DNA of 64,000 nt from a virus. The notes under the pieces were generated by a model. The model made no database searches, had not been told where the DNA came from, and saw only the letters and a list, made by a program, of their open reading frames with translations. The number at the start of each line of letters is the position of its first letter. Position 1 is the stretch's first letter. The stretch lies in the IMG/VR virus record IMGVR_UViG_3300027513_000010, one strand, 5' to 3'. Positions 16,810-47,164 of the stretch are shown here, one piece after another. The position numbers and the translations under genes are program-made.

Positions 16810-16837
16810 ATTATACATCGGTATAATTGCAATGCAA
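16810..16837 (-). promoter_or_regulatory. Promoter TTGCAT-N16-TATAAT
   Basis: Closely resembles the 42916-42943 promoter region. Confidence 0.85.
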
Positions 16838-19885: not shown

Positions 19886-20401
19886 TTAGAGACCGGTCTG
19901 AGCTACCCCGTAGGCGGCTTGCTCGGGAGTGAATCCCTCAAACTCCAATTGGTCTCGGAGTTCCCCGGCTGAGAAGGACGAGAAGTCCAAGTAGGACTCG
20001 GCGGATTTGTACGCCTGCTCGTTCCAATCGACGTTGAGATAGTCCACGGCGAAGGTGGCGTCGGCGGTTGAGTAATCCTCAAACTCCAACTGACCGATCA
20101 GGCCGGAGCGAGAGAAGGCGGTGAAGCTCAAGTAGGACTCGGCGCTTGCAACTGCGTTCTCCTGGCTGCGGGTCATGGTCGGGGCCGGAGCCTCGGTCAC
20201 GACGGGAGCGGTCGGTGCCGGAGCCTCGGTCGCAACCGTGGTGCCGGTGGTATCGGCTACGGCGGGAGCATCGTTGCCTCCGCTATTGGCGATGATCGCG
20301 ATGAACGCAATCGCCAGGACGTAGACCCACACTCGCTTGTAGATGGGTTTCTTGGTCTTGGCTTCGGTGGGAGCCACCGGAGCCTTTGTGTCTGAAGTCA
20401 T
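19886..20401 (-). CDS. Ltp-family superinfection-exclusion protein
   Basis: KKPIYKRVWVY, TM helix, two repeats SQENAVASAESYL...FSRSGLIGQLEFEDYSTADATFAV / AESYL...FSAGELRDQLEFEGFTPEQAAYGV; start at ATG 20401. Confidence 0.9.
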   Translation of the reverse strand: MTSDTKAPVAPTEAKTKKPIYKRVWVYVLAIAFIAIIANSGGNDAPAVADTTGTTVATEAPAPTAPVVTEAPAPTMTRSQENAVASAESYLSFTAFSRSGLIGQLEFEDYSTADATFAVDYLNVDWNEQAYKSAESYLDFSSFSAGELRDQLEFEGFTPEQAAYGVAQTGL

Positions 20402-20423
20402 GTCTGACCCCTTTCTTGTATGG

Positions 20424-20541
20424 AGCGAAGGCTCTGAGCGCCGCCTGGTCGCACCCACCGGCTTGCATCGGCTGCGAGAAAGAAAGGTAAGAACCCGCAA
20501 CTCGCACTCCCCACAACCAGGCGGCTTTCAGAGCCTTCGCT
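20424..20541 (-). ncRNA. Long-stem structured RNA immediately upstream of the Ltp RBS
   Basis: Perfect 14-bp AGCGAAGGCTCTGA/TCAGAGCCTTCGCT, 10-bp GCCGCCTGGT/ACCAGGCGGC, inner TGCGAG/CTCGCA. Confidence 0.6.
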
Positions 20542-20677
20542 GTGTGGGATCAATTATCGACGGCTGTAATTCAAACTTGAATGGTTCTTCAGACCTATCA
20601 AAGAAATCACTCCGTTTCTGGCCCCGCTCGCGACATAGTCACTGACCCCCGGTCGGGAGAAGGCCAACGCCACCCGG

Positions 20678-25273: not shown

Positions 25274-25999
25274 GCAACGGAGCCTAATTAGTTCGCAAAG
25301 TCTTTGCGGCTCGGGCAACGGGGCGATTCTGAGGGGTTGAATTAGTTCGCAATGTGTGTTGGCTGAATTAATTAGTTCGCAGGGCACATGTCCCTGGTCG
25401 TACGTATGTTCGGGGTAGGTGCAACGGACGGAGGGGGAGAAAACCCTTATAGATACTACTAATACTTTGCGAACTAATTATAGTTTCGTGTGTAGGCCTT
25501 GAGAGGGTTTTGGGGGTGTGCCCTGCGAACTAATTCAGTTTGCTGGGAGAATCTGGTTTGCGAACTAATTGTTTGCGAACTAATTGGGTGCAACGGGGGT
25601 GTCCTGGGATTTTGGGAGACCTCCCCGCTCCGATGCCCTCCCGCAAAGGGGGTACCTGGCCTGCTCCTGGGATTTGGAAACGGGGTTTTTGAATCGCACA
25701 TCTGGTAGCTGGGGGTGACCCGGTTCAGGGTTGGGGATGCTGGCCTGGCTCGGGTGGCAACGGAGGCTCGGTTGGAGGCTCAAGCTGAGCCTCGATGACC
25801 CCTGGTTTTGGAATCCGGCTGCAACGGAGCCTCCCCCTGGTGTAGTTCCAAGGCTGTGATTGGGAACATGTGTTCGGTTGGCTGGCCTGGGCCTGCAACG
25901 GAGCCTTCCCCGCCTGCCGTTCAACCACGCCCACTGCCCAATCGAGAGGTCACTCCCGCACCCAGCCGGGTTTTCAAAACTGCCTCGTGGCTGCAACGG
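25274..25999 (+). repeat. Eight co-oriented GCAACGG repeats
   Basis: 25274, 25315, 25421, 25590, 25757, 25821, 25895, 25993; the last three are CTGCAACGGAGCC. Confidence 0.8.
25286..25585. repeat. Seven AATTAGTTCGC iterons in two opposed groups (putative origin)
   Basis: + copies at 25286, 25340, 25370; - copies at 25469, 25525, 25560, 25575, around an AT-rich core. Confidence 0.85.
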
Positions 26000-26094
26000 A
26001 GCCATTTCCTGCCTGCACACCAACCCACCCGTTGGCCGTACTCGATGTGCCCGGCCCCTGAAGACTCCGTTTTTGAAACTGGCCTGGCCTTCAG

Positions 26095-26190
26095 TCTGAC
26101 CTCAGCCTGACCTCCACCCTTCACTGCCTGACCCTGGCCTGACCCTGGCCTGACCCTGACCCCTGCCTGAACCCTGCCCTCTGACCCTCC
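26095..26190 (+). repeat. Degenerate CCTGAC(C) tandem repeats
   Basis: ctgacc/gcctgaccctg repeated about 8 times. Confidence 0.75.
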
Positions 26191-26330
26191 CCATGTATGA
26201 CATGAGGGGGTACCCCCCACCTTGCCTGGGATTTTCAAGGCCATGTAATGCAAGGGGGGTACCCCCTCCCCCTGGATTTCAGAAAAATATAAAGGCATAC
26301 CCCCCTCCCCCCGCCGGGGAAATTTCCGTC
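26191..26330. repeat. About 50-bp imperfect direct repeat containing GGGGGTACCCCC palindromes
   Basis: CCATGTA at 26191 and 26241; palindromes at 26206-26217 and 26255-26266. Confidence 0.75.
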
Positions 26331-26489
26331 CGACGAAAACGAGAAGGGGGTGGGGATACGTCGAGAAAAAACGATGGGGTCGTGGTGGGTAGCGGCACCA
26401 CCCCCTCTCAGACCGAGACCTCGCGCAAGCCCACACGCAAGCCGACCCTCTATACTGCGACACAGACCGAGACCAAGGACAATCCGACC

Positions 26490-28862
26490 GTGCCCCTTCA
26501 AGACACAGACCACGACCCCACCTTCTACCTCGACTCGATAATGGTCGAGCACGATGAGGAATTCAGCCTCCCCCCGAATTCAATCCCGCTCAGTGCCTAC
26601 CCCGCACCGTCCGGCCTCCGGCACACCCTGTATTTTCTAGTTCCCGTCCCGCTCACCGACTCCGACGATTTCGGCTACGAACCACCGGCTGAGGGCACCG
26701 AGTAAAACCGGCTGAAAATGACTCACGCCATACAGCCCTCAGACTCCCAACGAGAATCAAAGATCACGTTCATTCCCCACGCCCCTCAGAACCTCACCCT
26801 CCCCGAGCGGCTTTCCTGGCGTGCTGGCTATCGGGCGGCTCTGAAATTGCTGGCTGGCAACCCAAACGATCCCAACCTCAACTCCAACCCCGCCAACCCC
26901 ACTGGCCTAAACGACCCCGTCTATTGGTGCGCCACTCATCGCTCGACTTCCCCTGACACCGACCGCTGCGACTTCGCCCGCTACCTCCCCCCCGACCAAA
27001 CCCGAGCCGAGCGGGACGCTTGCAAACTCAGCCCTGCCGCAGTTGTCACAGCCGCCTTGGAGACCCCACCCTGGCGACAACCCTGAAAGGAACCCCCACC
27101 CCATGACCCCCGAACCCAACCCCGTCAACGAGAACGACCTTGCCGCCATGATTGCGGCGATGGATCAAATGACCGCGGTGATGCGGGACACCTTCGTACC
27201 CGGCATCGTTGCCATCGAGAAGCGAATCAAAGAGCAGGGCGGCTCGGCACAACTGGCCCGAGAGTTCGCCCTCAGCTACGGCAACCGCCTCATGGACGTA
27301 GCCAAGATCGGAACCCCAACCAACTCAGACCCCCAATGAGAATCGGATGGACAACCATCATCTCTGGCGCAAACGCCGTCGAAATCAAAGAGGCGGCACA
27401 AGCGGCCTGGGACGATTTCTGCGGCCCCGACCTTCCCTACTTCCATGACCGTGACAAATCCAAAGCCCCGCTCCGTTACCGCTCCCACATCGAGGTCAAC
27501 GTCGATGCCTCGGTAGCCACCGGCTCGGGAAAGATTCTCAGCTACGAAGGCACCGCGAGGGGATGGGTCGAGCTTCCATGAAAAACCCCAAGCTCGTTCT
27601 CGACACCGAGGCCTGCATCTTCGGATGGGGGCCGTGCCCCGAGGCTTACGGGTTCTCCCATGCCTGCCGCCGCCCCGCCCACCATCCCGGTGACCATTAC
27701 TGCGCCACATGTGGTGCTCGGGCGAAAGAGCCGGTGAAAGAGCCGGTGAAAAAGTGAAGCTCCGACCACGGCTCAAGTTTCGCCACCAAGATCGCAAGCG
27801 CCATCAGCGTCGGATGGCCCAAGCCACCGAGCGCATCGCCTATGGCTACGAGGTCAAGGACGCCAGCCCCATCGAAGGGTTCAACTACATCAGATACGGG
27901 ATCGACGCCCTGGTTCTATGCGGTTGCGACCGGGAGCTTTGGCCTCCAAGTGTCCAAGCGGCTGTGCCCGCAAATACGACTCCATGAAAACCGCCCACGT
28001 CCGCTACCGAGGCCCGACCCAAGACGGCTGGCAAGAGGGAGCCTGCTATGAGGTCTACTTCGATACCGGCGGTAGCGGAGGCCTTTCAAAAACGGTGCGG
28101 ATCGGCACCTACGCCAGCCACAACGATCTGATGGAACACCCCGGCCCGAACCCGATGCGGCTCACCAGCCTGAAACGATTCCTTGAGTGGTTCGATTTCA
28201 CGGACAAGCATTTCAAATGAGTTGGGAAGAGGACTGGAAGACGTTCAAGGCGATGCCGGTCGGGTGGAAGCTGATGGCGAAGGTGACGGGCCTAACCATT
28301 CTCACCGCTTGGATTTTGAATCGGCTCTCGCAATGACTCCCAAGCCCGGCGACACCATCCGCTACACCCTGGAATTCACCGGGGTTGTGGCCCGCATCCG
28401 AGCCTCCCGAGATGGCACCGAGACCTATATTACAGTCCGCAATAATCGCGGCGAGCAGACCATCCTTGCCAGCCAGGTAACCGAGATACTCGACCCCGAG
28501 CCGCCCGAGGCCGACGTGATAGCGGGAGTCCGCTGCCCGGTCTGCCGCCAGCCATCGGGCAAGCCCTGCCTGCACCGGGTTCTCCCCGACAAGGAACTCA
28601 AGCACCCGCACCACGAGCGCATCGCCGAATACATACACGCCACCAATTGGCCGACTCACCCCCACTCCCTCGATTCCGATACGAGATAACTCAAGACCGC
28701 TGGTGCTGGTGCGGACAGCCCGCCGCTCTCTGCATCACCCGTACCGAGACCGGCCCCACCGGGAGGCCGCGCCCCTCGACCGCCGAGACCGTCGAGTACG
28801 TGTGCTCCCCCGACCACGGCACCAGGGCCATCGCCTATCTGACCCGGCAGCCACCAAAATGA
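26490..28862 (+). other. Cluster of about ten small early-type hypothetical genes
   Basis: 26490-26705, 26718-27086, 27103-27339, 27336-27581, 27578-27757, 27754-27987, 27984-28220, 28217-28336, 28333-28689, about 28647-28862; mostly ATGA/GTGA-coupled. Confidence 0.65.
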
Positions 28863-28863
28863 T

Positions 28864-28898: not shown

Positions 28899-29978
28899 AT
28901 GACCGAGACAAGACCCTCTCTAGTAGACAAGGCGCTGGACGCACACACCGGCACCGTTGAGTTGATGCGCTCACCCAAAGGCCACGCTCTGGCCGAAGCC
29001 CTGCTCAACCGGAAGAGCCGCACGCATGGCCGGGTCGCCAATGTCTACGGGCCTGACCCCGAGAACGAGCTTGCCTCGACTCTGAGCATTGCGCCCACCT
29101 ACGCCGTCACCAACCACATGCTCACCATCATCGAGCATGGTTGGGCGGAATTGTCCAGCCGTGAAAAAGAGACTGCCCGGCCCCTCGACCTTGACTGGCT
29201 CCCAAGCCCGAACGGGTACGTGCTTTTTGAACGGCCTGTCGAGATGCCGACCACGGCCCCGCTCTACAACTCCGAAGACGACAAGCCTCTGAGCCGTCCG
29301 GTGGCCGGGGTGTTTTGGTTCACCGGCCCCATCCTCACCTATCGGTACGCCTCGGTCTTTGAGGCGCAACTTGCCGAGCAGACCACTCCCGACAAAGCCC
29401 CGCCGCCCGTCGAGGCAGTGACCAAGCAGGGGGTGATGCTCGGGCTGATCGTGCACAAAGACCACGCCTTCACCGAGGGAGCCGATCTGACCGGGGCCGC
29501 TGAGTATTGGCCCTTCGATGTAACCGGCTGGTCGGAAGGCTCGCCCTGGAAAGAGGTCAGCTACGAAGAGTGGCAAGAGTCGTTGCTCGCCAGCGGCAAG
29601 GCCACCCCTGCGGGTTCGGCCTGGCGCTGGTTCATGGTGGCGATGTGGGCGATGATGACCGACCGGGTGACCCTCACCCCGGCAAGCCGTCACTCCCGCC
29701 GACGTGCGGGCCGGGTTCTCGGCACGCCAGCCGAAGAGGTCTCCAAGGTTCGGGTGGTCACGCTGCGTCGGGAGAACCCCAACCCCTCTGTCACCGGCGA
29801 AGAGTCCACCGGCGGTTTTGAATACGACCATCGCTTCCTTGTCTCGGGGCACTGGCGCTGGCAACCGCATGGCCGGGGCCGGAACAAGGTGAAGCTGATC
29901 TGGATTGCGCCCTACGTGAAGGGGCCGGAGCACAAGCCCCTCATCATCAAAGACACTGTGCATCTTCTCAAGCGATGA
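28899..29978 (+). CDS. Conserved actinophage hypothetical protein
   Basis: C-terminal HRFLVSGHWRWQPHG...IWIAPYVKGP motif; start reassigned to 28899. Confidence 0.75.
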   Translation: MTETRPSLVDKALDAHTGTVELMRSPKGHALAEALLNRKSRTHGRVANVYGPDPENELASTLSIAPTYAVTNHMLTIIEHGWAELSSREKETARPLDLDWLPSPNGYVLFERPVEMPTTAPLYNSEDDKPLSRPVAGVFWFTGPILTYRYASVFEAQLAEQTTPDKAPPPVEAVTKQGVMLGLIVHKDHAFTEGADLTGAAEYWPFDVTGWSEGSPWKEVSYEEWQESLLASGKATPAGSAWRWFMVAMWAMMTDRVTLTPASRHSRRRAGRVLGTPAEEVSKVRVVTLRRENPNPSVTGEESTGGFEYDHRFLVSGHWRWQPHGRGRNKVKLIWIAPYVKGPEHKPLIIKDTVHLLKR

Positions 29979-30343
29979 GCGAGCACTTCCGACCCGTTGG
30001 CACCCGAACCGATATTCGGGTTCTGGCGCAGGGCTATTGGTGCGCCCGCTGTGGCGAGGGCGGCATGGGCATGTACGCACATCACGGCGGCAAGCCTTGT
30101 GTCCCGAATCCTGAGCTTGTTCACCGGCTCGCCATCGTCAATAGTCCGACGTGGGAAAAGGACGTTAAGAGCACCCGAACAATTATCTGTCAGTGCGATT
30201 GTGGTTGCGAGCCGTGCGACCCCGACCTTGCGCTGGACGATCCCGAGCAGTGGCATTCCGAGCCTCGTTGCGCCTGCCGGGGTCTCAACTGTGGGTGCGT
30301 CGTGGCTTGCGGCTGTATTGACGCATTCACGGAAATGGATTGA
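29975..30343 (+). CDS. Cys-rich hypothetical protein
   Basis: WCARC...CQCDCGCEPC...CACRGLNCGCVVACGC. Confidence 0.55.
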   Translation: MSEHFRPVGTRTDIRVLAQGYWCARCGEGGMGMYAHHGGKPCVPNPELVHRLAIVNSPTWEKDVKSTRTIICQCDCGCEPCDPDLALDDPEQWHSEPRCACRGLNCGCVVACGCIDAFTEMD

Positions 30344-30344
30344 C

Positions 30345-30372
30345 TTGCGTAAGATTTACACCGATGTATAAT
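30345..30372 (+). promoter_or_regulatory. Promoter TTGCGT-N16-TATAAT
   Basis: Shares ACCGATGTATAAT with the 16810 and 42916 promoters. Confidence 0.8.
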
Positions 30373-30394
30373 CAAGGGTATTGACAAGACCAAT

Positions 30395-30540
30395 CGGTGA
30401 GTGAGCGAGAGGCCTGGTGGACTTAGGCGGATGGTTCCGCCCTCTTGGAGCTATTGCGGCTACTTGAGCTTCCAGCCTGTGGGCCAGGGAAGGGGTTCGA
30501 TCCCCGCCACATCGCAATCGGGCCTCTCGCCCACTCACCG
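30395..30540 (+). ncRNA. tRNA-like structured RNA closed by a 20-bp stem
   Basis: CGGTGAGTGAGCGAGAGGCC/GGCCTCTCGCCCACTCACCG (19/20); four inner hairpins including GGGG-TTCGAT-CCCC. Confidence 0.65.
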
Positions 30541-30576
30541 GATGGACAGACACAGACAAGAAAGAGAGGAACGCTT

Positions 30577-32817
30577 ATGGCGATCACATCGACATCGACC
30601 ATGAAAACCGAAGACGGTTCGACGGTCGTGATAGAGCACGAGTGGGGTAACACAACAACCCTCACCCTGATCGACCGACTCGGGGCTGAGGTTGGGGTAA
30701 CCCTGACCAATGAAGAGGTCGAGCTTCTGCGTGAGGAATTGCGATGAAGACGAAGACCCCGTCCATGACCCGGCAGGACTTCCAGTTCATCGCCGAAATC
30801 CTGGCCTCGGCTTCGGCTACGGCCCGGCTCGGAGACCGGCAGACTGATTACGCCAAGGGCAATGACGACATGATGGAGATTGTCGTGCAGACCTTCGCTC
30901 ATCGGTTGGCCGAGACCAATCCCCAATTCGACCGTGACCGATTCTTGGTCGCAGCGGGGCAGGTGTTGCCATGACCACTAAGCGAATCACATCGGAAGAG
31001 CTTGCCGCCGTCCCTGGTGTCAGGGGCGAGTGGATAGCCATTCTGGAATCGCATGATCGGGCGTACGGCAAGCTCTCTTGGTACAAGGTCAGCCCCGGCG
31101 CACATGTCAGTGCTCCTACCAAGGAAGAGGCCATCGAGAAGTTGCTTTCAAAAGTAGCTTCGATGCGAGGCGAATATTTCCACAAGAGAATGCGGCGGGC
31201 CAAGGGAGTGCGGGTTATGACCACCTTCGTTCCCACGCACCCGGCCTTTGCGCCGGACAACGCAGCGACCAAGCGGGCGATGGAATTCAAAAAGGGTTTG
31301 GAATGAGATGGGGCGTAAACCTCCCCGGCCCGTTCTTCGTCGTCACTGGCGGGAAGCGCCGGAAGCGGAAGATCGATACCAGCACGCCGCAGGGTCTCAC
31401 CGTCAAGGCGTTGTGGTGGGTCGCCGTCTGGCTGCTCGCCACCGTGATTGCGCCGGTGCCGATGCTGATACTCACCGCCTTCATTGTGGTCTTTGGGGTG
31501 ATACCCGCTCGGTGGGGCATCCGGTATTTCAACCGGAAATACGGCCCCGACGAAGAGGCTGAGGAAGAGGCTCGCAAGTTGGAGCGGGACAACGCATGAG
31601 CGCCGAGCTACATCACGGCGAGCTAGAGGTTGTCCTGCGCGATCAGAACGACAACATCGGATACGGGCACGCACAGCCGACGATGGACGATGTCTTGGCC
31701 TGGTTGGGAGAAGAACCCGACGTGATCGGTATGTATTGGTGTGAAATTCACGCCAATCTCATTGAGTGTGAGCCTGGATGCACCGAAGAGATGAAGCCGG
31801 TTCTGATAGTGCCGTTCAACACCGGAGGGGAAGAGGAAGAGTGAGTTGGCAGGACGAATTCAAAAACGCCGTCGCTCAGTACGTCATTGAGCGAGGCATG
31901 GTTACCAATCCACCTTCCTCAGAGTTTGATTGGGGCAACTATTACGGCGGGCCGTACGACTTCGATGCCACCTACCACTTGCGCGGTGACACGCGCCGGG
32001 GTGAGGGCGGATGCGAGGTTTCTCAATGGAGTGATATTCAGGAAGAGCAATGGCGGCAATTCAGCGGCACCTTCGATGATGGTGATGGTCAGCGCTACGG
32101 AATCAGTATCAAGTTCTCGTGCAAGTGCGGGAAGCTGAAAGACCGGAGGTTGCTCACCGAGGATCGATTCGGGGAAGTGCTCCGAGCGCTGGTGGGAATT
32201 GAGACAAGGACATGATATGAAAAAGAGATTCAAAGTGTGGGGGCCGACCGGCTCCAAGATGGCTTGCGTTGATGCTGACAACGAGGCTGATGCAGTCAAG
32301 ATCGCATGCAAGCAAGAGCATGGCTTGGGCATCGTTGATGGTGACGTGCTCACCGTCCAGGCCGAGGAACCGAAGTTGCGGTTCAGGGTCAATATGACCG
32401 TGACCGGAGTGAGCATGGTTCGGGGCGCAGGCGATTTTCAGAACGAAAACATCGAGTTGACCACCGACAAAATTCCGCCGCATGTGCGCCCCGGCGATAC
32501 CACCGGCAAGGCTTCCGACGAGCAGAGGTACCCACCCCATGACCGCTAAGAAACTTTGGTGGTGTGACTATCACAAGTCTGTAGGACGATTGGGGTACCG
32601 CACCAACCTTGAGGGGTTCAAATCCTGCGAGAAGAATTACATCGCCATGCTGGAAGGAAGTCTGGACTCAGAGCGGTGCCAGATGGTCGTGTGTTATGTG
32701 GTCAGTGCTGATGAGGCTGAAAGACACGATGATGTAGTGGTGCAATTCGTGGTTGACGGCAACGTGATATACGACCGAGTTCGGGGCGATTATCTAATGG
32801 CGAAAATCGATGTCTGA
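30577..32817 (+). other. Run of small hypothetical genes
   Basis: 30577-30747, 30744-30974, 30971-31306, 31303-31599 (TM), 31596-31844, 31841-32215, 32217-32549, 32539-32817; translationally coupled. Confidence 0.7.
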
Positions 32818-42820: not shown

Positions 42821-42915
42821 TGCCTTGTGGCTGTGTGCTCGGCGTTGCCTTCTGCGCTCATGTCGTTGAGCTAGTCGAGATTCTCACCTTGCTTAGTGGC
42901 GACCTTCCTCTCAAC

Positions 42916-42943
42916 TTGCAATAGATTTATACCGATGTATAAT
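42916..42943 (+). promoter_or_regulatory. Promoter TTGCAA-N16-TATAAT
   Basis: tctcaacttgcaatagatttataccgatgtataat. Confidence 0.85.
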
Positions 42944-42969
42944 TTGTGAGTCAAGAGAAAGGAACCCAC

Positions 42970-43522
42970 ATGGCAACACTCAACGTTCCGGCTCCCTTCC
43001 CTGGTACGCCAGAGGAAGCGGCGAAGAACCGGGAAACTCACATCTTCGATTGGGATTGGATGCGGTGCGTCAATTGCGACTCCCGACCAACTGCCATCGC
43101 TGACTGGCCTTGCGGAACCAAGGTTCCGCGGCTGGTGAGGGAAGTCGCCTGATGTGGCTCTGGATCGAGTGCAATGACTGTGGGTACACCGGAGAAGCCT
43201 TCGGTGTGTGGATGGGCGAGAGCTACGAGTTCCAGCCTTACAACGAGCAACTGATATGCGTCGTGGAAAACCACGACTTCGATGTGAAAGGTGGTGCATA
43301 ACCATGACCGATGAAAAGACATACACCCTCAAATTGACCAGCGCTGAGTTGACTGCCATCAAGCAGGGCTTGGAGCGGGAATACCTCTGGAATCGGAAGC
43401 AGATCACTTCGGGCGAGAAGCCAGGCGCGACTGCTCTCGACGTGTCGAGGGCCAGGACGGTTCGTCGGAACAACAAGGCCGTGAGGTCTGCCGCCGTCAA
43501 GATCAAGGACGCCAGGCGGTGA
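42970..43522 (+). other. Three small hypothetical genes inserted in the structural region
   Basis: 42970-43152 (CVNC), 43152-43301 (CNDC), 43304-43522. Confidence 0.6.
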
Positions 43523-43823: not shown

Positions 43824-44177
43824 ATGGCCCGCAAGACGTTCAAGGGATACACGCCAACCGAGGCTCAAGTCATTGAGTTGCAGTCACCGGATGGCACACG
43901 GTCGATAGAAGTCCAAGGGCGGGAGACAATCGCCGGTTCGGTGATTCTCGATTTCCTCTCTGAGATTGACACCGACGACCCTGGAACTCTGGCGAAGGCA
44001 GTGAACAGGATGCTCAAGCTGTCCATAGCCGATGAGAGTTGGGATGAGTTCAAGGCTTTCGTGGACGACGAGAACAACGGCATCACGCTTGAGCTTCTCA
44101 GCGAGATTGCCGGGTTCTTTGCGGAGTCCTTCTCGGGAAAAGCATCAGCGTCACAAGAGCAGTCTTTGGCTTCCTGA
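43824..44177 (+). CDS. Tail assembly chaperone, short form
   Basis: Position before the tape measure gene; contains a slippery site. Confidence 0.8.
   Translation: MARKTFKGYTPTEAQVIELQSPDGTRSIEVQGRETIAGSVILDFLSEIDTDDPGTLAKAVNRMLKLSIADESWDEFKAFVDDENNGITLELLSEIAGFFAESFSGKASASQEQSLAS
44135..44141 (+). other. Programmed -1 frameshift site G GGA AAA
   Basis: In phase X XXY YYZ; the -1 frame is open to 44455. Confidence 0.85.
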
Positions 44178-44455
44178 TTTTGAATTGGGCCGGGGCGAGC
44201 GGGAGGTTCTTCGCCGCCACCGGTCGGGACTTGCGAGACCAGCCGGTTCATCTTCTCTACGAGTACGGCTACTTCATTCTGTCCGAACTCACCAGGCGCA
44301 CCAAGGAAGAGGCCGAGGCGATGGAGAAGTTGGAGGACACCTTCGCCGGTCTCGACTTCGAGGACGACACCGGGCTTCCTTCCATTGCCCGCCGGTTTGG
44401 GCCTGCCGACGATCCCTTCGGGTTCGATACCTCGGCGATACCGCCCGGCTTCTAA
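44142..44455 (+). CDS. Tail assembly chaperone, frameshifted extension
   Basis: -1 frame open from the slippery site to TAA 44455. Confidence 0.75.
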
Positions 44456-44470
44456 AACCCGGTTTTCAAA

Positions 44471-47164
44471 ATGCCTGACATTGTCGGGACTGCCTACGTC
44501 CGTATCCGTGGGGTCACGACCGGGTTGGCCGGTGACATTCAAGACGGTCTCAAAAAGGGGATGGCCGGGACTGATACCGATGTCCTTGAAAGGAACGTGT
44601 CTGATGCGGCGAAGCGGGCTGGCGAGTCGGGAGGCGAAGAAGGAGGCAAATCACTCGCTCGGTCGATGCGTGAGAATTTCAAAAAGAATTGGGACAAGGA
44701 CAACAAGAAGGGCAAGGGCATCTTCAAGGTGCTCGATGGGATCAAGAGTTTCAAACTTCCGAGCCAGGCATGGATGGGGATTCTCGGAATCCCGGCACTC
44801 GGGGGAGTAATCCAGCTTGCCTCTTCCTACGTGCTCACCTTGGTTGGGCAGCTTGGCTTCGTTGTCCAAGCCGCCGCTGGTGCCGGTGTCGCTCTTGGCG
44901 GCATGTTCGCAGCGGTGGGCCTGGCGGCGATTCCACTCGTTCTGGCATTCAAGGCTCAGACCGAAGAGATGGAGAATTTCAAAGAGTCAGTCGAAGGGCA
45001 AAAGGAACTCTGGATGGAAGTCGGGGGAGCGGTGCAAGCCACCTTCCTCCCGGCACTCGACCAAGCCATCGTCAACATGGGCGATCTGCGGGATGAATTC
45101 ACCGTTTTCGGTCAAGAGGTCGGAACCATCTTCGGGGAGTTCGTTCTCGGGCTTTCTGAATTCCTGACCTCTACTGAGTCAACGGGAAGATGGGTCGAAA
45201 TATTTGAGGGAGCTTCGGTTGTCTTTGAGTTTCTGCTTGACGCCGTTCAGAGCTTGGTCAGAGCCTTGCTTCCCTTCCTGCAAGCGGCGATGCCGATTGC
45301 GGTGCAATTCGCTGATGCTATCCGTAGAGCAGCGGCGAATTTCGCGTTCTTCATCGAGACCAGCCAGGAATCCGGTGCACTCGGTACGACCTTTCAAGAT
45401 TGGTGGGACAAGGCCACGCAGATTGGTCGTTCGATCTGGAACATCGTTGAGGCTTTGTGGGAGGTCTTCAGTGTCGCCGCCGATGTTGTGGCTCCCCAAT
45501 TCGACACTCTGGAATCGAAGACCCAAGGATGGGTTGACTTCCTGCGCTCTGCCGAGGGGCAATCAACACTCAAGCAAATATTTGAGGACGCATTGCCGGT
45601 GGCTCAAGAGGTCAATGCCTTGTTGGGCGATCTTGTCGATATTTTCAGAGAGGCCTTTGTCGAAGAGCAGGGCACCGGCGACATGGTCGAGTTCATTCGG
45701 AGCATCCGCACCGATTGGCTCCCGGCTCTTGAGAGTTTGCTGACCACTTTCAGTAGCGGGCTTGGTGACGGTCTCCGAGAACTGGCCGAGGCCTTCGGGA
45801 CGTTGATTCAGGAGGCGGCTGAGTCAGGAGCACTTGGGACGTTCACTGACGTATTGATCGTGTTGATCGAGGCGCTCACCGATTTCATTCAGCTTCCCGG
45901 CATGGGGCAGATCATTGGGGCGCTGGCGGCAGCGGTGGGGATACTTGGATTGCTCGGCAATGTCATCGGCCCGCTGATCGGGTTGATTACAACTCTTGGC
46001 GGGGTCATTCAGTTGTTCATGGTCTCGACTGCTCCGGCGTGGGCCGGTCTTGCTCTTGCTGCGGGAATCATCGCGGCAGTGGTCGCGGCGGTAGCTATAG
46101 CGATTTTGATTTGGAAAAATTGGGACAAGATCACTGCATGGCTGGCGCAGGCTTGGGAAGCGATTCAAAACTTCTTCTCTGATATTTGGGATGCCGTTAC
46201 CGGGTTCTTTGCAGGCATCCCCGAGTGGATTGAGGGAGTGTGGACTTCCATTCTGGAATTCATTGCGAGCATTCCCGAAGCTCTGCTTGCGGCGGCGACT
46301 GCTCTCTGGCAGTGGATCGTTGATGCCGTCCCGATAGTCCTCGGGAAGATGGCGTACTTCGCCGGAAGCGTTATCGGGTTCCTGCTCTCACTCCCGGTCA
46401 GAATTCTTCAATTGATGATAAAAGCGAGCCAGGCCTTGTGGACGTGGGTGCGAGATGCGGTGCCCGAGGCGCTCAAGTGGCTCGGCAACATGTGGCTCAC
46501 GATCTACACATGGATCGGGCAGACCATCGCCCGTCTGATTACTGAGGGCGTGAAAATGCTCAGGGCTTTAGTTCAGTGGATCGTGGACGCGGTCAAGGAA
46601 GCGCCGGGAAAACTTGCTGACTTCGCTCAGTCGGTTTGGGATTGGGCCAAGACCTTCATTGAGGAACTCCCGAGCAAGTTCATTGGGTGGATCAGTGGGT
46701 GGGCTGCGTTCGGAACAGAACTCGTTGGCAACATTGTCGATGGTCTGAATAGCGCTATCAGGTCGGTTTGGTCATGGGGAAAGAACTTGTTGCAAGCCAT
46801 CGTGGACGGGATTCTCGCTCATGCTGGCCCGCTGGCCGGGGTGCTCGGTGGTCTTTTCAGAAGTTTGGGATTCTCAACCGGCAACACCGGCTCGGGCGGG
46901 CCTACAACACCACGACCGCCAGGCGGTGGCACATTCTCGGCAACTGCGCTCTCAACCATGAGTTCTCCCTTCGCGGCTACAGCCTCAGCCTTCGTTCCGT
47001 CGCCGATCAACACACAAGCCTTTGCCAACGTCCCGACATCGCAAGGCGGGGCGATCAATCTCTTGGTCAAGATCGGCGATCAGGACATCACACGATTGGT
47101 GGATGCTCGGGTCTCGGACAACGACCAAGCTCTGGCTAACGCTCTCAATGTCAGGAGGCGGTAA
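44471..47164 (+). CDS. Tape measure protein
   Basis: MPDIVGTAYVRIRG start; 897 aa helical; W/F-spaced 11-residue repeats; TM-like segments. Confidence 0.9.
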   Translation: MPDIVGTAYVRIRGVTTGLAGDIQDGLKKGMAGTDTDVLERNVSDAAKRAGESGGEEGGKSLARSMRENFKKNWDKDNKKGKGIFKVLDGIKSFKLPSQAWMGILGIPALGGVIQLASSYVLTLVGQLGFVVQAAAGAGVALGGMFAAVGLAAIPLVLAFKAQTEEMENFKESVEGQKELWMEVGGAVQATFLPALDQAIVNMGDLRDEFTVFGQEVGTIFGEFVLGLSEFLTSTESTGRWVEIFEGASVVFEFLLDAVQSLVRALLPFLQAAMPIAVQFADAIRRAAANFAFFIETSQESGALGTTFQDWWDKATQIGRSIWNIVEALWEVFSVAADVVAPQFDTLESKTQGWVDFLRSAEGQSTLKQIFEDALPVAQEVNALLGDLVDIFREAFVEEQGTGDMVEFIRSIRTDWLPALESLLTTFSSGLGDGLRELAEAFGTLIQEAAESGALGTFTDVLIVLIEALTDFIQLPGMGQIIGALAAAVGILGLLGNVIGPLIGLITTLGGVIQLFMVSTAPAWAGLALAAGIIAAVVAAVAIAILIWKNWDKITAWLAQAWEAIQNFFSDIWDAVTGFFAGIPEWIEGVWTSILEFIASIPEALLAAATALWQWIVDAVPIVLGKMAYFAGSVIGFLLSLPVRILQLMIKASQALWTWVRDAVPEALKWLGNMWLTIYTWIGQTIARLITEGVKMLRALVQWIVDAVKEAPGKLADFAQSVWDWAKTFIEELPSKFIGWISGWAAFGTELVGNIVDGLNSAIRSVWSWGKNLLQAIVDGILAHAGPLAGVLGGLFRSLGFSTGNTGSGGPTTPRPPGGGTFSATALSTMSSPFAATASAFVPSPINTQAFANVPTSQGGAINLLVKIGDQDITRLVDARVSDNDQALANALNVRRR

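Follow-up and report, generated by a model that had tools for sequence, protein, structure and literature searches.

A structured leader in an uncultured phage genome

The 64,000-nucleotide (nt) stretch of DNA analyzed here, referred to below as the window, comes from IMG/VR record IMGVR_UViG_3300027513_000010 and represents part of the ~92-kb genome (~59% G+C) of an uncultured, actinophage-like phage. Between the genes for a 122-amino-acid (aa) protein (positions 29975-30343) and a 56-aa protein (30577-30747), it contains a 233-nt gap that is occupied by the element described in this work, a conserved, non-random folded RNA that is encoded on the plus strand, forms the 5' leader of a phage operon, and has not been named previously. 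The 56-aa gene stands at the head of a ~7-kb run of small co-oriented plus-strand genes, none of which could be assigned to an informative family. The following features are recognized at this locus.

30344-30372, plus strand: putative promoter, recognized as a recurring motif, with the -35 hexamer TTGCGT (30344-30349), a 17-nt spacer with the conserved TTTACACCGATG, and the -10 hexamer TATAAT (30367-30372)
30380-30393, plus strand: 5' tail of the transcript, predicted to be single stranded (AUUGACAAGACCAA), with a start at ~30379-30381 as estimated from the -10 hexamer
30394-30418, plus strand: 5' strand of the closing helix P1 (from pairing and variants); the lower part (30394-30404) varies with compensation, and the upper part (30405-30418, AGCGAGAGGCCUGGU), with a Shine-Dalgarno (SD)-like GAGAGG inside, is invariant
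30417-30420, plus strand: 5' strand of helix P2, GUGG, with the partner CCAC at 30507-30510; mutually exclusive with the last four P1 pairs and with an ensemble probability of only 0.15
30426-30441, plus strand: hairpin H1, D-arm-like, GGCGG-AUGGUU-CCGCC, with an invariant loop
30442-30468, plus strand: hairpin H2', 10 pairs and the pentaloop AUUGC, from the minimum free energy (MFE) fold and variants
30470-30491, plus strand: hairpin H3', UUCC-A-GCC[UGUG]GGC-CAG-GGAA, from the MFE fold and variants
30492-30505, plus strand: hairpin H4, T-arm-like, GGGG-UUCGAU-CCCC, with 4 base pairs (bp) and a 6-nt loop that is invariant in six versions
30511-30520, plus strand: 3' junction strand AUCGCAAUCG, conserved; its part UCGCAAUCG is invariant in all seven versions, even in L025, the most distant one
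30517-30541, plus strand: 3' strand of P1 (from pairing and variants), with a CCUCUC complementary to the downstream SD sequence; site of a 7-nt GCCTCTC duplication
30546-30576, plus strand: unstructured A/C-rich leader with the ribosome-binding site (RBS) GAGAGG (30563-30568)
30577-30747, plus strand: first gene of the operon, 56 aa, of no known family in a family search

The closing helix

Of the 20 positions in the arms at 30395-30414 and 30521-30540, 19 are complementary, the sole exception being an A·C mismatch (A30404/C30531), which bears out the 20-bp closing stem that had been proposed in the initial annotation; such a pair of arms would be expected by chance only 0.01 times per window. 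With wobble pairs included, P1 spans 30394-30418 and 30517-30541, up to 25 positions, adding to the 20-bp core a U·G pair at 30394/30541 and four further pairs (U·G, G-C, G·U, and U-A). For the 181-nt region, the MFE is -85.5 kcal/mol, compared with -64.9 ± 4.5 kcal/mol for shuffled sequences (z score, -4.57).

Seven distinct versions of the element were recovered from metagenomes, and their differences follow the helix. At 30394-30414/30521-30541, 20 of the 21 positions form standard or wobble pairs, and pairing is maintained in six versions. Two double changes are compensatory: C30395-G30540 is replaced by U-A in the version L026, and G30399-C30536 is replaced by A-U in L025. Other changes pass through wobble pairs (A30400-U to G-U in L025; U30394·G30541 to U-A in L026), and L025 closes the A·C mismatch of 30404/30531, which L026 has at 30403/30532 instead. 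Two compensatory pairs in P1 were matched by just 13 of 500 shuffles, so that the covariation sought across homologous phage loci was found in this helix; the alignment of the full-type versions taken alone was not significant (87 to 109 of 500 shuffles).

The changes also bear on the nature of the molecule. The plus strand folds better than the minus strand by 3.5 to 11 kcal/mol in five of the seven versions. The G-U changes in H1 and H4, together with a stepwise repair in H2', indicate RNA, and the wobble changes count for an RNA on the plus strand because the same changes would be A·C mismatches on the other one. It is therefore most unlikely that the inverted repeat acts at the DNA level, as a binding or recombination site for a protein or as a small mobile insertion with terminal inverted repeats. 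The arms do resemble terminal inverted repeats of 20 to 25 bp, the interior is replaceable, the ends of many metagenome contigs fall at or close to the element, and the mosaic of genes changes there. However, changes of the G-U type in five helices and the strand asymmetry of the folding energy fit RNA and not DNA; moreover, the arms are single-copy in the window, the flanks show no target-site duplication or direct repeat, the related complete phage G001 has no copy, and the spacing between the arms varies (106, 113, and ~61 nt). A coding function was rejected as well: open reading frames (ORFs) overlap the element on both strands, and the substitution pattern, along with the allele carrying the 7-nt insertion, excludes them, since this indel leaves no reading frame through the element on either strand.

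Junction and interior hairpins

P1 encloses a five-way junction, almost free of linkers, in which the hairpins follow the order D-like, long arm, variable-like, and T-like, which is the topology of a class II transfer RNA (tRNA). Three of the interior pairings listed in the initial annotation, GTGG/CCAC (P2), GGCGG-ATGGTT-CCGCC (H1), and GGGG-TTCGAT-CCCC (H4), were found as described there. The other two, TGGAGCT/AGCTTCCA and CCTG/CAGG, are superseded by H2' and H3', respectively. The fold with H2' and H3' is the MFE structure, and these hairpins have ensemble probabilities of 0.4 to 0.6, compared with ~0.05 and ~0.14 for the two earlier helices. Natural variants lead to the same choice: the TGGAGCT helix is broken at 30446 in L008 and a G-C pair of the CCTG/CAGG helix is broken at 30479 in both L026 and L040, whereas no pair of the H2'/H3' fold is broken by any substitution and every variant is compatible with it.

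Within this fold, C30440U turns a G-C pair of H1 into G-U in the commonest version of the element (12 contigs), and C30505U does the same in H4 of L026. The H2' pair 30446/30464 changes from U·U to U·G in L026 and C-G in L008, and 30448/30462 changes from G·A to G·U. The tetraloop of H3' is variable (UGUG, UUUG, or UUGG) and its stem is unchanged. In L025, which lacks H4, the P2 partner reads CUAU, and four pairs can be read by eye using two G-U pairs; in the MAFFT alignment (A6), CUAU falls one column off the P2 partners, so that no pair count covers P2 of L025. A pseudoknot between AUUGCG (30453-30458) and CGCAAU (30513-30518), possible in the lineage of the window, was rejected in the absence of covariation; this pairing fails to explain the conservation of the junction because CGCAAU is kept in L025 without a partner. 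Overall, the comparison of versions supports P1, H1, H2', and H4 as RNA structures, whereas H3' and the choice between P2 and an extension of P1 are provisional.

Promoter and transcript

The initial annotation placed a strong promoter ahead of the element. A real recurring motif is found there, but its reading as TTGACT/TATAAT fails: these hexamers are spaced 21 nt apart, so that a consensus scan makes no promoter call. The 18-mer TTTAyACCGATGTATAAT occurs four times in the window (0 expected), at 878 and 16810 on the minus strand and at 30355 and 42926 on the plus strand. ACTTGC precedes all four copies, which defines the family (A)ACTTGC-N6-TTTAyACCGATGTATAAT with a -35 element TTGCnn, a 17-nt spacer, and the -10 hexamer TATAAT. 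Similar TTGCA-17-TATAAT sites are located at 28863 and 41961 on the plus strand. The motif is kept in L025 and L026. The element lies 8 to 20 nt downstream of the motif, and a leader of ~200 nt follows only the copy at 30355, the other three being followed by ~8 to 35 nt. The spacer of this promoter family (copies at 878-895 and 16810-16827, minus strand; 30355-30372 and 42926-42943, plus strand) is unusually conserved and could be an operator for a phage regulator.

Within the 5' tail, GACAAGACCAA is identical in all seven versions except for a single C-to-T change in L040. A terminator scan found no terminator-like site directly after the element; as a result, the element should be cotranscribed with the operon, as the 5' untranslated leader of its mRNA. 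The start codon of the 56-aa gene lies in a predicted local hairpin (UAUGG...CCAUG; window 30574-30606) with an unpaired probability of ~0.02 in every construct folded, a pairing that could be due to chance.

Since the element directly follows a promoter and precedes a long array of co-oriented genes, it might be an RNA that, like put of phage HK022, modifies RNA polymerase and permits processive antitermination through these ~7 kb of small genes. The invariant sequences of the junction and the upper helix would also fit an interaction with conserved machinery of the host. Nevertheless, this function is very improbable: terminator-like sites downstream show no excess (11, compared with 14.5 expected), the other copies of the same promoter have no element, and Rfam shows no likeness to known antiterminators.

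Distribution and conservation

In addition to tail proteins and collagen-like fiber proteins, the window encodes a family A DNA polymerase, a primase-polymerase/helicase, a MuF-zeta fusion protein, a terminase, and an Ltp lipoprotein; no integrase was detected among the window ORFs tested. The terminase is ~43% identical to those of Gordonia and Microbacterium phages, which makes an actinobacterial host likely. A neighboring 367-aa protein has only weak partial relatives in the comparison with cultured phages.

Blastn searches found no homologue of the element in cultured phages, and no copy was found in IMG/VR, in reference genomes, or in the related complete phage G001 (93.8 kb), for which both BLAST and the covariance model R1 were negative. 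Scanning IMG/VR for patterns of the T-like or D-like modules was likewise unproductive, and when 1.84 billion representatives were searched with a profile of the 56-aa protein, the two lineages already known were the only ones recovered. Contigs of this phage group were reached in metagenomes via the neighboring proteins, and a 17-mer scan of metagenomes added three more: of its 47 loci, just 3 were true homologues, and one of the others, L043, was rejected as a chance match to the 17-mer. A scan of reference genomes with the 19-mer TCGCAATCGGGCCTCTCGC gave five chance matches within coding sequence. Three of these (L081, L083, and L084) are exact and lie inside one conserved protein-coding gene in Solirubrobacterales genome bins; they were judged to be due to chance because they have no helix partner and no match to the covariance model. 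As far as these searches reach, the element family appears to be limited to one small phage group.

The seven versions comprise the window type (6 contigs), the commonest one with C30440U, a version whose 3' arm carries GCCTCTC twice in tandem (6 contigs; at least 5 samples), L008, L040, and L026, with divergence rising in this order, and L025. Differences from the window in four contigs are as follows.

L016: element, 0.6%; upstream gene, 11.9%; 56-aa gene, 17.5%
L008: element, 2.6%; upstream gene, 13.8%; 56-aa gene, 2.9%
L040: element, 3.8%; upstream gene, 11.6%; 56-aa gene, 9.9%
L026: element, 6.7%; upstream gene, 13.8%; 56-aa gene replaced

Given that the element differs by 0.6 to 6.7% and the upstream gene by 11.6 to 13.8%, the noncoding block stands out as a conserved island. 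In L016, promoter and RBS leader show no differences from the window at all. The 7-nt duplication corresponds to window positions 30523-30529 and is found in L017 (1276-1441) and also in L007, L010, L018, L019, and L096, genomes that are otherwise identical to the window. It adds to the RNA either a bulge or a second copy of the anti-SD sequence and may represent a natural expression variant. Many metagenome contigs of this phage end in or near the element (window 30296-30553): L010 at 30299, L012 at 30448, L094 at ~30466, and L013 at 30553. The jump in strain divergence over the same interval marks this locus as a mosaic boundary in the population.

The two most divergent versions have parts swapped. 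L025, with a homologue of the 56-aa gene (69% identity), keeps the promoter, the 5' tail, P1 with its compensations, and the junction strands CCUGGUGG and UCGCAAUCGGG. Its interior is wholly different, consisting of one 11-bp hairpin with a 12-nt loop and a G-rich linker (z score, -7.7), and has neither the D-like nor the T-like hairpin. Such a swap on an unchanged base implies that the base is the shared, conserved part of the element and that the cloverleaf-shaped interior is a lineage-specific module. Judging from the versions available, this platform consists of P1 (21 to 25 bp) and the two junction strands, with a lineage-specific apical domain on top. Because L025 has a single hairpin instead, the tRNA-looking interior would be dispensable for the role of the platform. 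In L026, the element is directly followed by a second, unrelated element (L026:762-870) with a 20-bp closing stem (z score, -3.8) and by a different first gene, of 71 aa. The second element and the other first gene suggest that promoter plus platform travels as a module, and long-stem leaders seem to travel together with their genes.

Relation to tRNAs, tmRNAs, and Y RNAs

The initial annotation viewed the element as a tRNA-like RNA recalling bacterial Y RNAs. The first part of this view is borne out insofar as the RNA has a discrete conserved structure with a T-loop-like UUCGA, a GG-containing loop, and a cloverleaf topology; membership in the tRNA or transfer-messenger RNA (tmRNA) families, on the other hand, fails. 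ARAGORN detected no tRNA or tmRNA gene in the window at default settings. Thresholds relaxed to 60-80% returned only mutually overlapping spurious candidates on both strands, runs with introns or in mitochondrial mode were not credibly positive either, and the tmRNA mode stayed negative at a relaxed threshold. Rfam searches, at the gathering score, at an E value of ≤10 with 321 nt, and at an E value of ≤10 with the 103-nt interior alone, gave no match to tRNA, tmRNA, YrlA, or any Y RNA; the single match, to mir-611 (E value, 7.7), was attributed to chance. An origin of the interior from a tRNA gene or an attP core was rejected, as a BLAST search of 50,697 phage records with it (E value, ≤10) returned only chance matches to coding sequences.

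The element shares with class II tRNAs and the tRNA-like domain of tmRNA the cloverleaf with an extra arm, the UUCGA loop closed by a G-C pair, and the GG in the first loop, but it lacks the 7-bp acceptor stem, the free CCA end, and the 7-nt anticodon loop. Thus, the acceptor-like helix has 4 bp, not 7 bp, and runs into the 21- to 25-bp helix without a free 3' end. Instead of a 5-bp anticodon stem with a 7-nt loop, the long arm consists of 10 pairs capped by a loop of 5 nt, in agreement with the earlier remark that a canonical anticodon arm and CCA are missing. The T-like arm has 4 bp and a 6-nt loop, compared with 5 bp and the 7-nt UUCRANN. Both this loop and the GG-containing loop of H1 are invariant in six versions. 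The T-loop-like hairpin H4 is conserved, and any role of it is putative.

Y RNAs are defined by an adjacent Ro60 gene, a Ro-binding helix with the motif GNCGAAN0-1G, and a tRNA-like domain (PMC4201824). The element resembles YrlA and the Deinococcus radiodurans Yrn1 (PMC4201824) in having a long stem formed by its ends and an internal multihairpin domain with hairpins similar to T and D arms. It differs from them as an mRNA leader with no adjacent Ro60 gene among the ORFs tested and with a homologue, L025, that has no tRNA-like domain. Pfam searches detected no TROVE/Ro60 domain in 47 window ORFs, including every ORF of at least 300 aa; this set left out most ORFs shorter than 150 aa, the minus-strand ORFs of 150 to 300 aa at 3-869, 25921-26463, 42871-43506, and 43865-44542, the alternative minus-strand ORF at 27276-27797, and the ~28 kb of the phage genome beyond the window. 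The TROVE domain (PF05731) is also absent from G001, in a search to which control genomes respond. By inspection, GNCGAAN0-1G does not occur in the 5' strand of P1 (GUGAGCGAGAGG), the best window being AGCGAG with 4 of 6 matches. With no Rfam match, no TROVE domain in the ORFs tested, no Ro-binding motif, and the loss of the interior in L025, kinship to bacterial Y RNAs is not supported. The remark that the arm order differs from that of Y RNAs applies to YrlA; the order agrees with that of Yrn1, a likeness that, from the sequences, amounts to resemblance only.

It is accordingly improbable that the element is a free-standing, tRNA-mimicking RNA of the Y type, with a stem that binds Ro60 or another protein and a domain that serves as a decoy for tRNA-binding enzymes or anticodon nucleases. 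This explanation would account for the hairpin order at the junction, which is that of class II tRNAs and of Yrn1 (PMC4201824), and for the invariance of the UUCGA and GG loops in six versions in which the other loops vary. It is at odds with the lack of a covariance-model match, of a similar phage tRNA gene, of a TROVE domain in the ORFs tested, and of GNCGAA, with the off-size arms, with the absence of a terminator after the element, and with L025, which is wholly devoid of the domain. At most, a decoy function may be considered for the apical domain by itself. In these comparisons, neither the tRNA nor the Y RNA label is supported.

A sister element upstream of the Ltp gene

Only one other long-range inverted repeat of this class is present in the window. 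This element, E1 (20424-20541, minus strand), is located upstream of the Ltp gene and has a closing helix of 14 + 11 bp (z score, -5.9; window 20401-20560, minus strand; L001:60-228). Both elements have a promoter-like sequence, a long closing helix, a folded interior, a 5' arm with AGCGA(G)AGGC, and the sequence CAnACAAGAAAGRGG with the RBS (20408-20422, minus strand, in E1), and the 3' flank of E1, CAUACAAGAAAGGGG, is nearly identical to that of the element. They differ in the interior, the gene, and the strand; only E1 has an anti-SD loop, and their alignment is limited to the arms and the flank. In G001, E1 is likewise found ahead of the Ltp gene, conserved and with compensatory changes (AGCGAAGG/CCUUCGCU versus AGUGAAGG/CCUUCACA). 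The conserved apical loop of E1, ACCUUUCUU, matches the ribosome-binding region of E1, AAGAAAGG, with perfect complementarity, which gives E1 the look of a translational control leader for this superinfection-exclusion gene. Taken together, E1 and the element suggest that long-stem leaders are used repeatedly in these phages and support a posttranscriptional role of the class. A further structure in G001, closed by 15 bp (z score, -5.1; L001:4543-4636), lies right after a stop codon, with terminator-like hairpins behind it, and is one more candidate structured intergenic RNA, without homology to the element.

Possible functions of the leader

The early transcripts of phages T7 and lambda are processed by the host RNase III. 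This precedent, along with the length of P1, which is about two A-form turns, places a role in processing or stability first among the explanations considered. We tentatively favor the view that the element is a cis-acting leader in which P1 provides a double-stranded RNA (dsRNA) platform for processing or regulation, probably by RNase III, and carries a lineage-specific apical cargo. P1 itself, a dsRNA of about two turns, would be the working part and would serve a double-strand-specific factor, for which RNase III of the host is the most likely candidate. Cleavage would trim the leader and set the 5' end, and hence the stability or translatability, of the operon mRNA; it would also release a small stable RNA in the form of the apical domain, which would then be a cargo or modulator and not a tRNA.

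An idealized RNase III substrate has 22 bp, or two A-helical turns, with mismatches and internal loops steering the cleavage to a single strand (PMC3867540). With 20 of 21 positions paired, P1 has the ~20- to 22-bp length of such a helix. The T7 R sites and the lambda N leader similarly combine about two turns of dsRNA and a single mismatch with a position in the leader of a phage operon, and in the stems of rRNA precursors, as in the element, a helix encloses a folded domain that cleavage would release. In contrast to the known RNase III stems, cleavage of the element is a prediction, its upper helix is invariant in sequence, and a variant with a 7-nt bulge is common; the T7 sites, furthermore, are simple hairpins without a multihairpin cargo.

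Several observations weigh against processing by RNase III. None of the seven versions shows a sequence change in the upper 14 pairs of P1 or in the junction strands, a constancy beyond the needs of RNase III that points to a partner recognizing the sequence or to a further constraint. The 7-nt duplication, which is widespread, bulges P1 and should disturb a canonical RNase III site. The covariation comes from few and closely related sequences. Finally, a separate function of the apical domain is hinted at by its D-like and T-like loops, both of them invariant.

The invariance of the upper part of P1 would be accounted for by a translational switch, in which the SD-like GAGAGG in the 5' strand of P1 masks the anti-SD CCUCUC; once freed by an event that removes or occupies this 5' strand, CCUCUC would pair with the SD sequence at 30563-30568 and shut off the first gene. 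In this case, the platform would be a device for regulation and more than a site of processing. The 5' strand of P1 and the RBS share the hexamer GAGAGG, and the predicted unpaired probability of the SD sequence falls from 0.81 in the full leader to 0.00 for an RNA starting at 30512 or 30521. The 7-nt duplication copies precisely the CCUCUC segment, and E1 offers a parallel in the pairing of its loop with its own SD sequence. Yet in the variant with the duplication, the SD sequence is predicted to be as open as in the wild type (0.81), and no trigger for the switch is known. L025 matches the SD sequence at only 5 of 6 positions, and L026, in which another structured element and a different gene follow, retains ~4 complementary bases. 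We consider the switch rather unlikely because the complementarity is thus weaker in L025 and lost in L026.

The processing platform could also be combined with mimicry. According to this proposal, which we regard as a long shot, the T-loop-like UUCGA hairpin would dock onto the GG-containing loop of H1, so that the four-hairpin apical domain would genuinely imitate the elbow of a tRNA. Carried on the processing stem and excised from the leader, the domain would accumulate as a small RNA and titrate a host factor that recognizes the elbow, such as RNase P, a T-loop-modifying enzyme, or a tRNA-directed defense nuclease, with relatives carrying other cargo on the same platform.

Implications for phage biology

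Structured leaders and processing stems in the early transcripts are well known in a few model coliphages. To our knowledge, they are almost undescribed in phages of Actinobacteria. The practical value of the element is limited because it is confined to one small uncultured phage group. Still, it offers a compact and tractable example of such a leader, with a defined putative promoter, compensatory helix variants, a 7-nt bulge allele, and a natural swap of the cargo. If the helix acts as an RBS switch, it would show how the timing of a block of small early genes is controlled. Release of the apical domain in a stable form would make it a new small phage RNA with a T-loop module, and if it proves to be an elbow mimic, the platform would serve phages as a general means of launching small RNAs.

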